Source: an uncultured bacterium
Lineage (GTDB): Bacteria > Krumholzibacteriota > Krumholzibacteriia > LZORAL124-64-63
Reading direction: 5' to 3'
Assembly (NCBI GenBank): GCA_963727525.1
Contig: CAVSGO010000007.1
Span: forward strand, 1,504,001-1,568,000
Length of the DNA: 64,000 nt
Of the stretch, positions 1 to 12,044 are shown in pieces. The notes below the pieces were generated by a model. The model was not told the origin of the DNA. It ran no database searches and worked only from the letters and a program-made list of their open reading frames with translations. Position 1 is the stretch's first letter. Each line of letters begins with the position of its first letter. The translations under genes and the position numbers were made by a program.

Positions 1-1101
1 CTCTTGGTCATCGTAACAATTTTGAAGCTGATTGAGCTTGAAAACGACCGTATCGAGCACCGACGTAAGTGTTGTCATTGGAAACCCCGCGCCACGCAAA
101 GCATTTTCGAGTTGCGCGATACCGCAAATTTCTCGCAGACTGGGATCACTCCTACATTTCCCCAACAACCTTCTCAACTCGAGGAGTCCGTACTTCGATC
201 CGATCCCGAGAAAAACTCCATATTGCGACAATATCGCCCCACACACATGCTGGAAGTACGAGCGTAGACTCTGAATGTAGTTGATTGATTTTCCCGCTGT
301 CCGGGCCGACTCGGCGCATTTCAGATGATGCCACGCGCGCTCTAGATTGTAAGCCGTAACGCGAACGCGAGTAGCGTCGTTGACGAGCCAAGGATGCGGC
401 GGCCCCACGACGATATCCTCAAGTAGGTATAAAAGAGTCTTGTAGCGGATGCCGTAAACATCAAGCGTCCCAACAAAGCGCACGATCTCATGCGACATCT
501 TACCGAGATTATAAGAACTGAAAAGGTGAGACAACTCGGATCTTGGATCATCTTCTTGCCCCATTCCCAGGATCCTGCGGAAAAGATGCGGCAAGATCAT
601 ATTCTCAATATATTCATAGTCCAGATCATATTCGACATCATTGTCGACAACTCTCAAGAACTGCTGGTTCGGGTCACCATAGCGACGAATATATGCGGCA
701 CACCACCATTCGGCCTCCGGGTGGACACATTCGAGATCGCGAATGACCGCCACCACCGCGACTCTCATGTCCGATGTCGTCAACACGCATTTATCCTCGC
801 GCTCGTCCAACATCAGCGCGAGCATGTTCACAACCCGAAACGGAATTGCGATAGACACCTTCAATGGAATCCCGATGCGCATAAGGGAAGTCACAAGCAT
901 TTCCGATGAGTATTCGATCGAACGGGCGCCGCGCACGAGCCTACCTGCTGTATTGAGCTTGGTCGCAAACAGATCGTCCGCGCACCGGAACATATCCGCA
1001 AAGCTACTTTCCGTCACCTGTGTCTTGGACAGATAGATATCCCCGCCGGCCACGATGTTTTGATCCCCGTCGATTCCCAGCTGACGCTTGTCGCCCTTCA
1101 T
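1..1101 (-). CDS. Hypothetical protein, 3'-partial (>367 aa); N-terminal GxxNxVxGGDI motif, possible tandem ATP-cone-like and HEPN-like regions
   Basis: Manual translation: ATG at 1101 after a GAGGTG SD, open for 367 codons to the window edge (MKGDKRQLGIDGDQNIVAGGDIYLSK...QNCYDDQE). Missing from the ORF track because it has no stop in the window. Visibly lower GC than the core genes. Confidence 0.85.
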   Translation of the reverse strand, partial: MKGDKRQLGIDGDQNIVAGGDIYLSKTQVTESSFADMFRCADDLFATKLNTAGRLVRGARSIEYSSEMLVTSLMRIGIPLKVSIAIPFRVVNMLALMLDEREDKCVLTTSDMRVAVVAVIRDLECVHPEAEWWCAAYIRRYGDPNQQFLRVVDNDVEYDLDYEYIENMILPHLFRRILGMGQEDDPRSELSHLFSSYNLGKMSHEIVRFVGTLDVYGIRYKTLLYLLEDIVVGPPHPWLVNDATRVRVTAYNLERAWHHLKCAESARTAGKSINYIQSLRSYFQHVCGAILSQYGVFLGIGSKYGLLELRRLLGKCRSDPSLREICGIAQLENALRGAGFPMTTLTSVLDTVVFKLNQLQNCYDDQE

Positions 1102-1109
1102 GCGGCACC

Positions 1110-1265
1110 TCACCTGCGAATGTTTATATCCCCACCGGACATGACGTTATTTCTGCCTCGGATCGACAACGTAGTTCTAATCGAGGAAACCGTTCGAAAT
1201 ACGAGAATTGTGATTACAAGCGACGCAATTGACGCTATTGACCCCACGATCGCCAGAACCTCCAT
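1110..1265 (-). CDS. Small single-TM protein (51 aa) with C-terminal GxNNVxxGGDI motif
   Basis: GGAGGAG SD, then MEVLAIVGSIASIASLVITILVFRTVSSIRTTLSIRGRNNVMSGGDINIRR. Hydrophobic residues 3-23. Its TGA overlaps the SD of the next gene. Confidence 0.8.
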   Translation of the reverse strand: MEVLAIVGSIASIASLVITILVFRTVSSIRTTLSIRGRNNVMSGGDINIRR

Positions 1266-1423
1266 GACATCTCCTCCATTGTTTATGACATCCCTCACCG
1301 CGAAACACCGGTCGATTGCCAGACAACGTCCAGGTTGAGAAGGAAACAGACCTGGCCGAGCCGACTGCAGAACTCGAAGATGCCACCGGATTCCCGCCCC
1401 GGCAAGCATTTCCCGATATTCTT

Positions 1424-1577: not shown

Positions 1578-3077
1578 TCAATCGAAGTGTCTGAGTGCGG
1601 ACCAGAGGCCGGCAGCCGGCCGCAACAGGCCGCGGCAGTAGGTGATCGGGACCCCGGTGTCCTCGTTCCGGAATCCCATGACGCTCTCGACTTCCCCCAG
1701 GGGCCTCACTTCGGAGTACTGCCGCTGGAGCCAATCACGATCGTACCCGATGACGATGAGAGGGTCGAGGGCGGGCGCCTCCTCCCAGTAGGCGTAGCCG
1801 TTGTGGCCGGAAACCGCCGCCGGCAGGCCATGCGGGCGACCGTAGACATCCACGGCACCGGCAACTCCGTAGTTGTTGGCCAGGATCCTCAGGCCGTCCC
1901 GCTCGTCCGGAGCCAGTTGTTCGTACAGGTTCACCGTCTGCACGGCAAGCTCTTCCCATCCGAACATGTTCTGCCAGTCGTCGTGCGGAAGATGCTCCAC
2001 CAGACTACCTAGCTGCGCCGGGGGAATCACAGGGAGGAAGAACGGCACCATCAATACATGCGAGGCCAGCAACCAGACGACCCCCCGCTTCGCGCCCCGG
2101 ATCGTACTGCGTGCCAGATATCGCTCGACCGCGACGGCACCCCCGGCATACAATAGCGGCAGCGTCGGTCCCACGTAGTAGGGCTTGCCGCCCGTCACGA
2201 GGAAGACAGCCCAGGCCACCACCACGGCCACCCCCAGGCTACGCCAGCGACTGCCGGCACCCCGGCCCACCAGGAACTTGAAACCGCCGACCATCAGCAG
2301 CACACCCATGATCGGTCCGGCCTCCGCGGCAGCCAGCAGCAGGAATGTCCACGGCCTGACGGCTTCACCGTCGCGATTGTGAGCGATGAATTCCAGCAAT
2401 GGCCAGCCACGTTCTGCCTGCCAGACGAGCGTCGGCACCGCCGCGATCGCCGCGAGAAGAGCACCTGCCCAGAGCCAGCCAGACCGCAGCAACGCCCGCT
2501 GCGGCGTCAACAGCAAACCCACCAGCACACCGAGTCCCCAGCCCAGGATCGTCAACTTCGACAGGAGGCCAAGGCCGAGCACCAGGCCGAATAGCAGAAA
2601 AAGTCGCCTATCCCCGCCGCCGATGATGGCAACCAGGACCGCTGCGCTGGCCGCCCACGCCAGTTGATCCAGCGAAACCGTCTGGAGCATCGAATTGGCC
2701 AGCAGGAACAACGGTGAAACCACGACAGCCAGCGAAGCGAGGGTCTGGGCGAGCCGTCCGCCACCGAAGCGCCGTGCCATCCAGCCTGCAAGAACGACCA
2801 GGATCGCGCCCACCATGGCCGGCCAAAGACGTAGCCAGAATGGCGAAAGGCCCGCCAGGCGTTCGGTCACTGCTGCCAACCACGGCACCAGCGGCGGTTG
2901 GTCGGGATAGCCCCAGGCCGGATGTCGACCGCACATGACGTAATACAGCTCGTCCCGGTGCAGCGGATAGTGGGTCGCCGTCACCAGGTGCATCAGCAGC
3001 TTGAGGCCCCCGAGGGCGAAGACGAATCGCGAAAGCGGTGCGGAAGGTGCCTCTTCGATCTCGAGTGCCTGGGACAT
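1578..3077 (-). CDS. ArnT/PMT-like (GT39/GT83-type) membrane glycosyltransferase
   Basis: LHRDELYY...AWGYPDQPPL motif and many TM helices; 499 aa. Confidence 0.85.
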   Translation of the reverse strand: MSQALEIEEAPSAPLSRFVFALGGLKLLMHLVTATHYPLHRDELYYVMCGRHPAWGYPDQPPLVPWLAAVTERLAGLSPFWLRLWPAMVGAILVVLAGWMARRFGGGRLAQTLASLAVVVSPLFLLANSMLQTVSLDQLAWAASAAVLVAIIGGGDRRLFLLFGLVLGLGLLSKLTILGWGLGVLVGLLLTPQRALLRSGWLWAGALLAAIAAVPTLVWQAERGWPLLEFIAHNRDGEAVRPWTFLLLAAAEAGPIMGVLLMVGGFKFLVGRGAGSRWRSLGVAVVVAWAVFLVTGGKPYYVGPTLPLLYAGGAVAVERYLARSTIRGAKRGVVWLLASHVLMVPFFLPVIPPAQLGSLVEHLPHDDWQNMFGWEELAVQTVNLYEQLAPDERDGLRILANNYGVAGAVDVYGRPHGLPAAVSGHNGYAYWEEAPALDPLIVIGYDRDWLQRQYSEVRPLGEVESVMGFRNEDTGVPITYCRGLLRPAAGLWSALRHFD

Positions 3078-3345
3078 GGAGCATCCTCACGAGCCGGTAG
3101 GTGGTGCAACGGCGCCGAGGGCAACCACACCCTCAGCGACACGTCGCACTGAGACGTATTCCCTCCGCAATAGTTGCTGCTGATCGTCGCCTGGCTCAAA
3201 ATACCAGGCAAGCGCGTTCCGCAGCACAGGCTCGCTCGTGGCCATGGACCGCGCTGGCAACGGGTAGACAAAGGCCTCCCTTGCTATCCTGGCCAGGAAG
3301 TCGGGCTCCGGTCCATGACCGACACTCGCGACAGTCAGCCCGCCA

Positions 3346-3483
3346 GAACCCCCGCACCTTGTCCCGCAATTCCTTCAACGAGAATGGTTTCTGGATGAAA
3401 TTCTCGCCTTCGTCCAGCACCCCGTGATGGGCAATGATGTTGGCCGTGTAACCGGACATGAATAGGATCTTCAGGCCGGGTCG
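3346..3483 (-). pseudogene. C-terminal fragment of a response-regulator receiver domain (hybrid kinase type)
   Basis: [44 protein letters not shown]; the N-terminal part is absent. Confidence 0.75.
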
Positions 3484-3653
3484 TCACCCTCGCCCGCCAT
3501 CGCCGCCATCAGGGCCATACCGTCGTCCTCGCCGCCGCCAACGACCGCGTCAAGAACCTCCTGCATATCACGTCCCTGGACATCGCCCTGCCGACCTACG
3601 ACTCCCTCGCCGCGGCCACCAGGGCACTGCGCCCCGACCCGCCGACGACGTAG
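3480..3653 (+). pseudogene. C-terminal fragment of a STAS/anti-sigma-factor antagonist
   Basis: VVLAAANDRVKNLLHITSLDIALPTYDSLAAA...TAG; no start codon or N-terminal half. Confidence 0.65.
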
Positions 3654-3841: not shown

Positions 3842-4312
3842 TTAAGGCGTCTGTTCGGACGACAGGTGACGTCCTACTTCACCAGCGGCAGATCGCCTTT
3901 CGATCTCGTCGGCCACCGCTCGCGGCACGCACTTCTTGTTGACTGGGTTAAAAAATGTCCCAAGCGATTTCGCCAGCACAATCGCCAAAGGAATTCCTGC
4001 AATGGTGACAAATAGGCCAGCTATTTGTAATATGCAGATCATGGAGAGAATCAATCCGAAGGGAATGTAGACAACAGTCACGACAAAGGAATACGCTTTC
4101 CATACGTCGTTCTGCTTCTCATTCAACGCACTGCGGCTCACCATGGCCTTCGAAAACGGCGCAAGAAGAAACTTTCCGTATTCCATCAGGCCGCGCCCGA
4201 TCGGTGCAGCAATAACCGTCACGGTGAGAATCAGCCCAAGAAGCCAAGTCAGCGCGGCTTGAACGAAGCCAAAGAACGGGAAATGCCACAAGATGTTGCC
4301 CAGAGTCCTCAT
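3842..4312 (-). CDS. yccF: YccF-domain inner membrane protein
   Basis: MRTLGNILWHFPFFG...AAPIGRGLMEYGKFLLAPF; GGAGGAG SD. Confidence 0.85.
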   Translation of the reverse strand: MRTLGNILWHFPFFGFVQAALTWLLGLILTVTVIAAPIGRGLMEYGKFLLAPFSKAMVSRSALNEKQNDVWKAYSFVVTVVYIPFGLILSMICILQIAGLFVTIAGIPLAIVLAKSLGTFFNPVNKKCVPRAVADEIERRSAAGEVGRHLSSEQTP

Positions 4313-4351
4313 ATTCTCCTCCAATCTAGACGGTACAGTATTGTGTTGAAA

Positions 4352-4496
4352 ATCCAACGCTCTCGGCCAGGACAGGGGTACACCTGCACATCCCGCCGCA
4401 ACCATGAATCGCTGTGGCCATCCGCCAAGCGTAAGGAGGCGAAGCTGACTGCAGCGGGGTCGGGATGAGCCGCATGCCAGTCCAACCCTGTTAGAT
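4352..4496 (-). repeat. Degenerate attC candidate
   Basis: ATCTAAC just after the cupin stop and GTTGGAT shortly before the yccF SD. L boxes pair poorly and 145 bp is long for an attC. Confidence 0.35.
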
Positions 4497-4509
4497 GTCG
4501 GGCCTGAGC

Positions 4510-4853
4510 CTACTCTTGCCTGACTATATCGACCGAGATCTCCACTGCCGGAACCGTTCCTCTGTTCTCAAGCCAGTGCAGGTGTTCCTATCCTCGGGCC
4601 AGCCCACTCCCGGCCCATACTCCGTAGCGACCCCATCTCGATGGTCAGTGATCGTTCCCTGCAATATATAGACGGTGCCCGGCCTGCCTATATGGTCGTG
4701 AATCGGGCCGAAGACACCTCCAGGCTCGATGGTCACCAAACGCATTCGAAGTTGGCGCCCCGTCATGCCCTCGATCTCAGGGCCAAGGTCAACCGTCGCA
4801 GGGGACTTCACCGTAACACCTCTTGTCTCAGGTGCCACCTTTTCGTTGCTCAT
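4510..4853 (-). pseudogene. Cupin-domain protein with a 1-nt frameshift near 4581
   Basis: PIHDHIGRPGTVYILQG...WPEDRNT continues in another frame as HWLENRGTVPAVEISVDIVRQE-stop. Confidence 0.75.
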
Positions 4854-10692: not shown

Positions 10693-11340
10693 TCAATGAC
10701 GTCTTTTCAGCACGACATGAGTTGCGGCGGCGGTTGGGACATGAGCGGTGCACTCATAGCCCAAAACAGTGAGATCGAGGCCATATAAGAGATGCTCGCC
10801 AGAACCGAGCAGCATCGGTGCGATCGCCACGTGTAGCTCGTCGATGAGTCTCGCTTCGAGATACTGGCGGACCGTCGCCACGCCACCGCTGATCTGCACG
10901 TCCTTGCCCTCCGCGGCCGCCACGGCGTGCTCCATCGCCTCTCGAATACCCTCGGTAACGAAGTGGTAGACTGTACCGCCTTCCATCTCCACCGACGGGC
11001 GAGCATGATGGGTCAGCACGAAAACCGGGCCGTGGTATGGGGGGTTCTTTCCCCACCAGCCGCGCCAGGAGTCATCGGGCCAGGCACCTCGAATCGGACC
11101 GAACATGTTGCGACCCATGATCCACGCGCCAACGCCATCGCCGAATCGCGCAGCGAAATCCTCGTCGACGCCAGTAGTACCGCCGGCCTTCCCAACCATG
11201 CGCTGAAACGTGCGTGTCGGAAAAAGCCACTCGTGCAACTCCTCCCCGCCGGCGCCGAGAGGCTCCTCCCGAGTCTGGCGCGGGCCGGCCCCGAAGCCGT
11301 CGATCGAGATCGCAAAGTTGTGCACGCGTACGCGAGTCAT
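10693..11340 (-). CDS. Dihydrofolate reductase/RibD C-terminal family protein
   Basis: ISIDGFGAGP, MGRNMF, GGVATVRQYL..RLIDE motifs; GTTAGAC core-like site at 11370-11376. Confidence 0.85.
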   Translation of the reverse strand: MTRVRVHNFAISIDGFGAGPRQTREEPLGAGGEELHEWLFPTRTFQRMVGKAGGTTGVDEDFAARFGDGVGAWIMGRNMFGPIRGAWPDDSWRGWWGKNPPYHGPVFVLTHHARPSVEMEGGTVYHFVTEGIREAMEHAVAAAEGKDVQISGGVATVRQYLEARLIDELHVAIAPMLLGSGEHLLYGLDLTVLGYECTAHVPTAAATHVVLKRRH

Positions 11341-11510
11341 GGTTCCTCCCAGGCAAAGATGCCGTCCGAGTCTAACGGGAACGCAACGTCCGCCGGGACA
11401 AGCCATCAAGAACGAATAGCAGCCCGACACCTTGCATCAACGCGGCGCCACTCCGAGACCGCAGCGCCAATACCACGACTCTCGTCAACCCGGTATGTCT
11501 CGACGATCCC

Positions 11511-12044
11511 TCAGACTGCCGGCAGATCAGAGGTGCGGCCGAGATCGAGACGCATGGGCTGTTGCATGAGTGATGACCCCGGCCGAAGCGGCTGCGGCTC
11601 CCCGGCCGGCCGGAATCCCGCCCGCGCATACAGCCGCCTGGCAGGACTATCGCCGTCCGTCACCTCCAGTGCGACTTCTCGCGCCCCCACGTCCCTCGCC
11701 CAAGTGATGACCGCGTCCAGGAGGCGGCGCCCCACGCCCCGCCCACGATACTCCGGCGCAACCCACACCTGATACAAATGCACCGCCGTCGGCTCGGACG
11801 GGTCGACCCGCCCCCAAGCGAGCGCGATCGCCTCCGCGCCGACCAGCGCGACGAGCGGCAGATCCGTCGGCGAGTGTACACCCGCCGCCAGACGCCGCTC
11901 CCATTCAATATCCGGGCGCGCGATCTCCCGCGCGCGCGTGCTACTGAAGGCGTCCGGCGACTCCTCGAGTGCACGGAGCCTCAGTTCGCGATACATCTGC
12001 CACTCGTGCGCGCGAAGACGCCGGACGAGGGCCGTATCAGTCAT
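11511..12044 (-). CDS. GNAT family N-acetyltransferase
   Basis: VWVAPEYRGRGVG and ARRLYARAGF. Confidence 0.9.
   Translation of the reverse strand: MTDTALVRRLRAHEWQMYRELRLRALEESPDAFSSTRAREIARPDIEWERRLAAGVHSPTDLPLVALVGAEAIALAWGRVDPSEPTAVHLYQVWVAPEYRGRGVGRRLLDAVITWARDVGAREVALEVTDGDSPARRLYARAGFRPAGEPQPLRPGSSLMQQPMRLDLGRTSDLPAV

Follow-up and report, generated by a model that had tools for sequence, protein, structure and literature searches.

Why should a membrane protein of 51 residues end with the same short motif with which the far larger protein encoded next to it begins? The question is raised by two adjacent genes at the start of a 64,000-nucleotide stretch of DNA, referred to here as the window, from an uncultured bacterium of the Krumholzibacteriota (assembly GCA_963727525.1, contig CAVSGO010000007.1, positions 1,504,001 to 1,568,000). 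The upstream gene encodes a small protein (P0002) with a single predicted transmembrane (TM) helix, and the downstream gene a protein of 392 residues (P0001). An earlier note on this DNA proposed that the two are effector and sensor of a minimal abortive-infection system in which the shared motif serves amyloid signalling. The two proteins, their relatives and their genomic loci are compared here, and signalling of the amyloid type is the reading that is favoured.

A motif shared by two neighbouring proteins

The tail of the small protein carries LSIRGRNNVMSGGDINI (1119-1169) and the large protein has LGIDGDQNIVAGGDIYL close to its start (1030-1080). Aligned without gaps, the two are identical at 8 of 17 positions with a BLOSUM62 score of 43, the highest of all 17-mer pairings between both proteins; coordinates and identity are those that the earlier note had claimed. 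Among the 7,258,584 stop-free 17-mers in the six-frame translation of the genome, a score of 43 is reached only by the motif itself and by its partner, the runners-up scoring 38 and 39. The DNA encoding the two motifs is identical at 29 of 51 nucleotides, and the same codon is used at only four of the eight identical residues. This low nucleotide identity, together with the codon differences, argues that the likeness has been kept at the protein level, and it rules out a recent tandem duplication of DNA as the origin of the motif.

The genes are tightly coupled, as had been noted. The TGA of the small gene lies inside the Shine-Dalgarno (SD)-like stretch AGGTGAGG, 6 nt before the ATG of the large gene, and from this arrangement translation of the large gene is predicted to be coupled to that of the small one. 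The low guanine-plus-cytosine (GC) content of the pair is likewise confirmed, at 0.46-0.56 compared with 0.59-0.68 in the flanks.

The pair is a conserved two-gene module

An exhaustive HMMER search for the family of the large protein recovered 200 representatives at E <= 1e-3, of which 171 have E <= 1e-10 and 41 have E <= 1e-30. At the DNA level, a scan of species genomes yielded one relative from 17 pattern matches, on a Pseudomonas putida chromosome (L003), and a scan of metagenomes yielded 13 from 39 (L004-L016). There were no relatives among the four pattern matches in viral contigs, and tblastn searches of plasmids with P0001 and P0028 gave no match.

The large gene bears the motif in 12 loci (the window, L003-L008, L010-L012, L015 and L016), and in all 12 it is preceded by a coupled open reading frame (ORF) of about 50 codons for a single helix followed by the motif. 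The proteins of L008 are the same as those of L007, and L012 is a frameshifted assembly. Homologues therefore keep the upstream TM ORF, as the earlier note would have it, and they do so even where the large proteins are only about 25% identical. In all related loci, the stop of the small gene lies between -14 and +38 nt from the start of the large gene, and purine-rich, GGAG-type SD-like stretches are found 5' of the small genes. In P. putida, for example, a 50-residue ORF encoding a hydrophobic helix and then the motif tail ends 23 nt ahead of the large gene. The helix of the small protein has a maximum Kyte-Doolittle mean over 17 residues of 2.1-2.7 in the motif-bearing loci. Thus, the pair is a conserved two-gene module.

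The remaining three loci (L009, L013 and L014) encode large proteins with a fused TIR-like or DUF4062-like N-terminus, and the small ORF is present in none of them, L013, where no more than ~220 nt are available on the upstream side, being the weakest of these controls. The small-family profile, which was built from the 12 positive loci and hence matches there by construction, gave a best E-value of 1.9 on L009, L013 and L014, and that on the opposite strand. Separately, both genes of L012 (1-725) are frameshifted on a short metagenome contig, and these frame shifts are likely to be sequencing errors.

The two motifs co-vary

Many members of the large family start with the motif, for which the consensus is G-x-x-N-x-x-A-G-[RG]-D; in the close subfamily of the large protein G12 is invariant and N15 near-invariant. 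Co-variation between the motifs of small and large proteins was assessed in 12 cognate pairs, using 15-residue windows anchored on the conserved Gly, BLOSUM scores and 100,000 permutations. Ten pairs came from the loci (L008 being dropped as a duplicate and L012 as frameshifted), and two, P0166/P0005 and P0163/P0013, were joined by the equal size of their source contigs (5542 and 5096, respectively). The mean score is 37.1 for cognate and 26.7 for non-cognate pairs, with a permutation p of 1.1e-4 that is to be taken as indicative only, as are those that follow. The same p is obtained without the anchor G and N, and it becomes 1.5e-3 without L016 and 1.0e-3 without L016 and L011, the two most divergent pairs. 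The co-variation expected by the earlier note is therefore found. By hand count, 9 of 11 pairs have the same residue, G or R, at that position of A-G-[GR]-D in both proteins, and in the most divergent pair (L016) G-D-H-N is common to the two. For 6 of the 12 small motifs, the best-ranking large protein is the cognate one.

The earlier note had also drawn attention to two Arg in the small protein that face two Asp in the large one. They do so in the window, but the salt bridge that was built on them does not survive comparison, as charge complementarity is not conserved over the 12 cognate pairs. By hand count over the same windows, the residues before the anchor Gly have opposite charges in 4 of 12 pairs and charges of the same sign in another 4 of 12, while those after it have opposite charges in 1 of 12.

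Compared with the remainder of the proteins that carry them, the motif windows are enriched in G (3.7-4.1-fold), N (2.0-2.5-fold) and V (1.8-fold) and depleted in L (0.3-fold) and P (0.04-0.08-fold), a bias that is partly circular in that one G and one N or H were fixed by the selection pattern. It agrees with the bias of the bacterial amyloid motifs termed BASS, as given in the available part of the study by Dyrka et al. 2020 (10.1101/2020.01.06.895854). Both motif segments are unstructured in monomer models from AlphaFold2 (AF2). A complex of three copies of large-protein residues 1-45 with three of small-protein residues 22-51 was predicted with a score of 0.26 against a mark of 0.32, which weighs neither way on binding.

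A variant of the motif is seen in distant members of the large family. P0108, P0116, P0128, P0135, P0141, P0143 and P0145 start with an N-rich sequence in which approximately [FI]-G-x-G-N precedes an alternation of N/T and I, which suggests that one sensor core may carry several motif families.

These observations bear on the simplest explanation of the locus, that the likeness arose by chance, that the small ORF is spurious, or that the pair is a single gene which has decayed or split. The ORF is certainly short, and the database matches include no protein for it from the genome of the window, where it may be uncalled. Chance is nevertheless refuted by the unique genome-wide match, which is a reciprocal best among 7.26 million 17-mers, and by the co-variation; a spurious ORF is refuted by the synteny in 12 of 12 loci, each with an SD-like stretch, and by the 21 database members of the small family described below. 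As for a decayed or split gene, the large gene is intact at 392 codons and each protein keeps its own copy of the motif, so that no simple fission has occurred. Taken together, an explanation of this sort is scarcely credible.

A different matter is whether the motifs meet as amyloid. They could pair stoichiometrically, as a small beta-zipper, and so hold the sensor at the membrane by way of the small protein. In that case the small protein would act as anchor or co-receptor and the large protein would itself produce the output, for instance through its HEPN-like bundle or an extra C-terminal domain found in one subfamily. A shared, co-varying motif and conserved synteny fit any direct contact between motifs, and a motif of ~15-17 residues is short. 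We nevertheless consider this arrangement unlikely, for reasons that emerge from the architecture of the two proteins.

Effectors and adaptors occupy the N-terminal slot in relatives of the large protein

Relatives of the large protein have other domains where the motif would be. The occupants are TIR_2 (P0015, P0038), DUF4062 (P0060), an alpha/beta-hydrolase or DUF676 lipase (P0075, P0138), Metallophos (P0137), AAA_35 (P0021), HTH (P0046), EAD7 (P0076) and EAD1 (P0101), and one member that lacks the motif has a C-terminal TIR_2 domain (P0004). Matches to the PADLOC database of defence systems fall on these fused parts only, never on the core (ThsB, 1.2e-61; LmuA, 1e-6; CBASS-type effector, 4e-26). 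In a rough census of 151 representatives, 48 have the strict motif, 39 an N-terminal extension of at least 60 residues and 12 are N-truncated fragments. The N-terminus of the other 52 is short and does not conform to the strict pattern; judged by eye, many of these carry variants that are degenerate or rich in N, such as [FI]-G-x-G-N.

Since the slot is held by effectors or EAD adaptors in relatives, the motif behaves as a homotypic adaptor. By the same token, the conserved core would be the sensor, and the N-terminal or recruited part the output. The logic of an effector motif beside a sensor motif, on which the earlier note had relied, thus gains support, with fused effectors or EAD1/EAD7 filling the slot in paralogues and the fused loci having no small gene. 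Enzymatic effectors and EADs in the slot also speak against a small protein that is an anchor alone, with the output arising elsewhere in the large protein.

The same architecture bears on another possibility, that of an addiction module resembling a toxin-antitoxin system. The small peptide would be a constitutive pore-forming toxin that self-associates through its tail, and the motif of the large protein would cap that tail and keep it inactive up to the moment when the sensor is triggered or degraded. Toxins of this build, small and with a single TM segment, are common, and a matching motif could serve inhibition as well as activation; putative toxin first, the gene order decides neither way. 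Paralogues with fused TIR, lipase and phosphoesterase domains, however, imply that the core activates the effector to which it is attached, and a capping function of the large protein is accordingly regarded as improbable.

The large protein resembles ATP-cones and HEPN domains

P0001 and P0002 have no significant match in Pfam, NCBIfam or PADLOC, and in PADLOC-DB v2 neither hits any family at E <= 1. An AF2 model of the large protein, built from 105 sequences, has a mean pLDDT (predicted local confidence) of 92.3 and a pTM (predicted template-modelling score) of 0.84. Residues 1-30, which include the motif, lack secondary structure, and pLDDT in successive blocks is 48, 74 and 67. The remainder of the model has two recognisable parts.

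Residues ~48-148 superpose on ATP-cones (VIA-align), with Z-scores of 9.2 (9d3x; root-mean-square deviation 2.6, 93 residues aligned), 9.0 (5olk), 8.2 (the transcriptional regulator NrdR, 7p37) and 7.0 (9fzf). Foldseek found no match in the PDB at E <= 1e-3, its top weak rows being reductases that contain ATP-cones, and a comparison of the family profile with PDB sequences returned only noise from coiled-coil and designed proteins (best E 7e-4). Matches to the Pfam ATP-cone family (PF03477) are sub-threshold and occur in 6 of 40 members at E <= 0.05, two relatives having E-values of 7e-5 and 3e-4 and P0001 none. Beyond this domain, strands at residues 150-153 and 156-159 (DSSP state E) and the helices that follow repeat the pattern of residues 54-125, and P234, P235, H236, P237 and W238 are invariant or near-invariant. 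Residues 149-238 of the model may possibly be a second, degenerate ATP-cone.

Residues ~240-392 form a helical bundle that superposes on HEPN domains with Z-scores of 11.4 (1ufb), 11.3 (3o10, the HEPN domain of sacsin) and 11.2 (2hsb), values within the range that helical bundles reach by chance (~13). A Pfam HEPN match was obtained for 1 of 40 members (E 0.0044), and the Protein Atlas places P0001 near Abi_C/AbiJ-type HEPN-like clusters at 0.78-0.81, below the evidence level of that tool and hence as leads only. HEPN domains are RNases in many defence systems, which would suit a large protein that is itself the source of output. The alignment of 105 sequences, however, contains no conserved R-x4-6-H in the last helices, where L309 and D334 are the only near-invariant residues after G299, and the conserved E-R-A-x-x-H, with a spacing of 3, sits in the first helix. 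The bundle is therefore not called an HEPN RNase, and the missing Arg...His pair counts against an output from this part of the protein.

No NACHT or NB-ARC domain was found in P0001 by Pfam or NCBIfam, and the model shows ATP-cone-like and HEPN-like parts only. The partner of the small protein is thus not an NLR, a point on which the earlier note was right.

A subfamily of ~540 residues has a C-terminal extension of ~150 residues, within which residues 464-526 of P0070 match Mrr_cat weakly (E 8.6e-4, 19.9 bits against a cut-off of 21). On that match, these members would carry a nuclease of the restriction endonuclease fold besides the motif. The combination of motif and weakly nuclease-like region in one protein is also what would be expected if the large protein provided the output.

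The small protein is a single helix with a motif tail

The small-family profile retrieves 21 database proteins of 49-72 residues, with E-values from 9e-20 to 4e-6, about half of which lie outside the scanned loci. The window protein has a maximum Kyte-Doolittle mean over 17 residues of 2.52. In an AF2 model from 22 sequences, residues 2-32 form a helix (pLDDT 94-98 over residues 1-20) that is followed by an unstructured tail (pLDDT ~51), so that the putative effector is indeed a single helix, as had been described. A helical domain of the Bell or HeLo type was looked for and not found: the protein is one helix plus tail, has no significant Pfam or PADLOC family, and in the Protein Atlas matches only unnamed clusters (scores 0.87-0.88). 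That its helix may be homologous to the first, N-terminal helix of Bell and Bab domains is a lead.

The family consensus reads M-E-[IL]-L-x-I-x-x-S-x-x-S-I-x-S-L-x-V-S-L-F-V-A-x-K-V-x-K-I, followed by a short linker and the motif, with S12, I29, G37 and N40 near-invariant. The helix is conserved as well as the motif is. Ser or other small residues at positions 9, 12, 15 and 19 share one face of it, after which comes K/R-V-x-K/R-I. A conserved face of this kind would be explained by specific helix-helix packing, rather than by a passive anchor, and the small protein is accordingly suspected of making such contacts in the membrane. This degree of conservation, more than a passive anchor requires, is a further argument against a mere tether. 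The K/R residues after the helix, considered with the positive-inside rule, suggest that the tail is cytoplasmic.

Relation to known systems

The pair is filed with the amyloid-signalling systems, the BASS and Bab/Agp kind, as a member with a new sensor and a minimal effector. It is placed there because it has their comparative features. The same motif occurs at the C-terminus of the effector and at the N-terminus of the adjacent sensor, in the window as in each of the motif-bearing loci, and there are 'all-in-one' relatives in which a fused effector (TIR_2, DUF4062, lipase or Metallophos) stands in the place of the motif. Bell-domain and NLR features are absent.

The closest precedent is Bab/Agp of E. 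coli, in which a membrane-targeting protein of 109 residues and a TPR-GreA/B-C-PIN sensor share the BASS11 amyloid motif of ~20 residues (Ibarlosa et al., 10.1101/2024.11.07.622273). Phage T5 triggers sensor-dependent assembly, amyloid templating and cell death. As far as the available part of that preprint allows a comparison, the two systems have in common adjacent genes, a small membrane protein with an N-terminal helix and a C-terminal G/N motif, and a large sensor with an N-terminal motif; in addition, the BASS11 family occurs with TIR and EAD7, both of which are slot occupants here. Bab/Agp acts by activation, and as the tested precedent it makes an inhibitory, antitoxin-like role for the large protein harder to accept (10.1101/2024.11.07.622273). 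Judged by the same part of the text, the present effector differs in having ~50 residues and essentially one helix, where Bab has 109 and a helical 'Babybell' domain, and the sensor is ATP-cone-like and HEPN-like, not TPR-GreA/B-C-PIN. Unlike Bab/Agp, the pair lies outside any prophage or defence island. The key BASS11 positions Q92, D99, N100 and I87-G88-S89-V90 have no obvious fit to the core G-x-x-N-x3-G-[GR]-[DN], in a comparison made by the positions named in the text and not by the logo.

BASS1-10 are motifs of Bell-domain/NLR gene pairs in multicellular Actinobacteria and Cyanobacteria (Dyrka et al. 2020, 10.1101/2020.01.06.895854). Here too, within the accessible portion of the work, the shared motif is C-terminal in the effector and N-terminal in the sensor, the genes are adjacent, and the motif is rich in G, N, V and I and poor in P and L; 'all-in-one' relatives exist, and alpha/beta-hydrolase and TIR domains are alternative effectors. 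The pair differs from what is described there in having neither an NLR (NB-ARC/NACHT) nor a Bell domain, in its shorter motif and in having members in P. putida and Marichromatium purpuratum.

Other parallels concern single parts. EAD1 and EAD7 (PF19955, PF19960) occupy the N-terminal slot in paralogues of the large protein. EADs are homotypic adaptors through which a sensor is joined to an effector from another gene, and they are folded helical domains of 60-90 residues, whereas the adaptor here would be an unstructured, beta-prone motif of 15-17 residues. The likeness to ATP-cone regulators such as NrdR and the ribonucleotide reductases lies in the superposition of residues 48-148 (Z 8.2-9.2). 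ATP-cones couple the binding of ATP or dATP to a change of oligomeric state, a step that the mechanism proposed below needs. Unlike these regulators, the large protein falls below the Pfam threshold and has no Zn-ribbon or reductase body, and binding of a nucleotide is predicted only. AbiJ-type HEPN proteins (Abi_C, PF14355) resemble it in having variable N-terminal modules followed by a C-terminal HEPN-type bundle, while the large protein differs in lacking both a Pfam Abi_C match and the R-x4-6-H of the last helices.

Searches of the literature, with supplements and figures outside their reach, returned no paper that combines an ATP-cone with HEPN, or an ATP-cone with TIR or EAD, and only the Bab/Agp preprint was relevant to amyloid signalling together with transmembrane, antiphage and BASS. 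No relevant passage was matched in the available parts of Kaur et al. 2021 and of a 2025 ASM-detection paper.

Genomic setting

The features of the pair in the window are collected in Table 1.

Table 1. Positions of the gene pair, its signals and its predicted domains within the window
Feature	Position	Strand	Basis
Small membrane protein gene (P0002, 51 residues); coding 1113-1265, stop 1110-1112	1110..1265 (including stop)	-	ORF and translation
SD-like GGAGGAG, 5 nt 5' of the small gene ATG	1271..1277	-	Read off the sequence
Predicted TM helix of the small protein, ~residues 2-26, with conserved Ser/Ala/Gly stripe	1188..1262	-	Hydropathy, AF2, family consensus
C-terminal motif of the small protein, LSIRGRNNVMSGGDINI, residues 33-49	1119..1169	-	
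SD-like AGGTGAGG enclosing the stop TGA of the small gene, 6 nt 5' of the large gene ATG	1108..1115	-	Read off the sequence
Large gene (P0001), ATG at 1101; 392 residues in the whole genome, residues 1-367 in the window, last 25 codons beyond the window start	1..1101	-	
N-terminal motif of the large protein, LGIDGDQNIVAGGDIYL, residues 8-24	1030..1080	-	
ATP-cone-like domain of the large protein, ~residues 48-148	658..960	-	Structural superposition
Second hairpin-plus-helices unit of the large protein, ~residues 149-238, ending in near-invariant PPHPW	388..657	-	DSSP pattern, conservation
HEPN-like helical bundle of the large protein, residues 240-392 (in the window up to 367)	1..384	-	Structural superposition

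The distribution of the pair is sporadic. Of 401 genomes sampled from the genus of P. putida, 1 has the pair, and this is the genome from which the locus came; among 90 further genomes of the bacterial family to which the window belongs, none has it. One member of the protein family is from Marichromatium purpuratum, as named by its source. A low-GC islet is seen not only in the window but also in L003 (0.45 versus 0.56-0.64), L004 (0.38 versus 0.55), L007 (0.48 versus 0.69), L009 and L010. The neighbouring genes vary from locus to locus and are of the housekeeping type (amidohydrolase, MFS, GH97, HemN-like radical SAM, PMT_2), and with such neighbours a defence-island context is rejected. The pair is most likely a sporadic, horizontally mobile and self-contained two-gene conflict module, serving abortive infection or defence. 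A tightly coupled operon on a sporadic low-GC islet among housekeeping genes would also suit a selfish module of the toxin-antitoxin type.

It had been suggested that the pair follows an eroded attC site, as would befit an integron cassette. This is unsupported: a scan of the intergenic sequence gave generic, short inverted repeats only, and it included neither an attC-specific model nor a search for an integrase. The best of these repeats, a perfect 10-nt pair (1544-1553/1590-1599) separated by a loop of 36 nt, spans the stop codon of the PMT_2 glycosyltransferase gene that lies upstream of the pair (1578-3077, - strand) and is probably what was taken for the remnant of attC.

A gene of the PMT_2 family adjoins the pair twice, upstream and on the same strand in the window, and downstream and convergent in P. 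putida (L003 4222-5769, - strand); this may be a coincidence or a preferred insertion neighbourhood. In L010, a group II intron reverse transcriptase/maturase (RVT_1 and GIIM; 2019-3542, - strand) lies directly downstream of the pair. In L007, a HemN-like radical SAM gene with HemN_C is found upstream of the islet (13-1722) and an ORF for HemN_C alone downstream (4158-4715), and it looks as if insertion of the islet had duplicated the 3' end of its target gene.

Beyond the start of the window (genomic region L002), the large gene is directly followed by an ORF of 251 codons (11133-11885, - strand) with sub-threshold matches to IS1/IS1595 transposase zinc-ribbons (E 0.012-0.03). A 16-nt inverted repeat (11866-11904) between this ORF and the stop of the large gene may be the terminator of the operon. 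In the upstream genomic region, at positions 1-7000 of L002, large ORFs resemble, by eye, TssK/TssL/TssM-like components of type VI secretion and an FHA-domain protein.

A proposed mechanism

How might a single helix and a sensor that share a tag of 15-17 residues act together? In the mechanism proposed here, the first gene would supply a single-pass membrane peptide with a Ser/Ala/Gly helix face, positive residues and a flexible cytoplasmic tail that carries the G/N/V/I-rich motif. The second would supply a cytoplasmic sensor that bears the same motif on a flexible arm (its first ~25 residues), followed by an ATP-cone-like module, possibly in tandem, and the HEPN-like bundle. A nucleotide-dependent shift in the oligomeric state of the sensor, such as ATP-cones bring about in ribonucleotide reductases and NrdR, would gather several N-terminal motifs into a stacked cross-beta (beta-arch) nucleus. 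This nucleus would recruit and template the motif on the tails of the membrane peptides, and the clustered helices would form a membrane-permeabilising assembly by which the infected cell is killed or arrested. For the full course of events, from templating to membrane damage, the chances are judged to be slightly better than even.

Several points weigh against this proposal. The whole of its functional part, namely nucleotide sensing, oligomerisation, the amyloid-like state, membrane damage and phage defence, is inferred. The cognate partner is not the best match for half of the small motifs (6/12), the permutation ignores phylogeny and shared composition, and two of the cognate pairs have only the size of their contigs to join them. 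At ~15-17 residues, the core of the motif is shorter than the ~25 given for BASS in the available part of the description (10.1101/2020.01.06.895854), and a short homotypic motif could act stoichiometrically, not as amyloid. The ATP-cone assignment stays below the Pfam threshold (best relative 23.7 bits, cut-off 25.8), the likeness to HEPN is of a size that chance can produce, and the neighbours are not those of a defence island.

A bolder version of the proposal can be envisaged, which is possible though rather doubtful. In this version the pair would represent an unrecognised immune family, in which the ATP-cone module reads phage-induced shifts in ATP or dNTPs and signals by amyloid templating to the smallest known executioner, a 'naked' pore-lining helix of ~50 residues. 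Such a helix would amount to the N-terminal one of a Bell/HeLo-type death domain, stripped of the sheath that protects it. The sensor core itself could equally be connected to outputs of the TIR, lipase, phosphoesterase or EAD kind.

Significance

Should the proposed mechanism be correct, immune signalling of the amyloid type would no longer be confined to NLR/Bell pairs and to Bab/Agp of E. coli, a single tested system. It would gain a new class of sensor, ATP-cone-like and possibly reading nucleotide pools, together with an effector that is scarcely more than one TM helix. An effector of 51 residues with a tag of 17 would be the simplest known system in which templated aggregation leads to membrane damage. 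Finally, the core of ~350 residues, which has 200 representatives but neither a Pfam family nor a PADLOC entry, would become a marker by which to recognise new defence loci whose outputs are of the TIR, lipase, phosphoesterase and EAD kinds.

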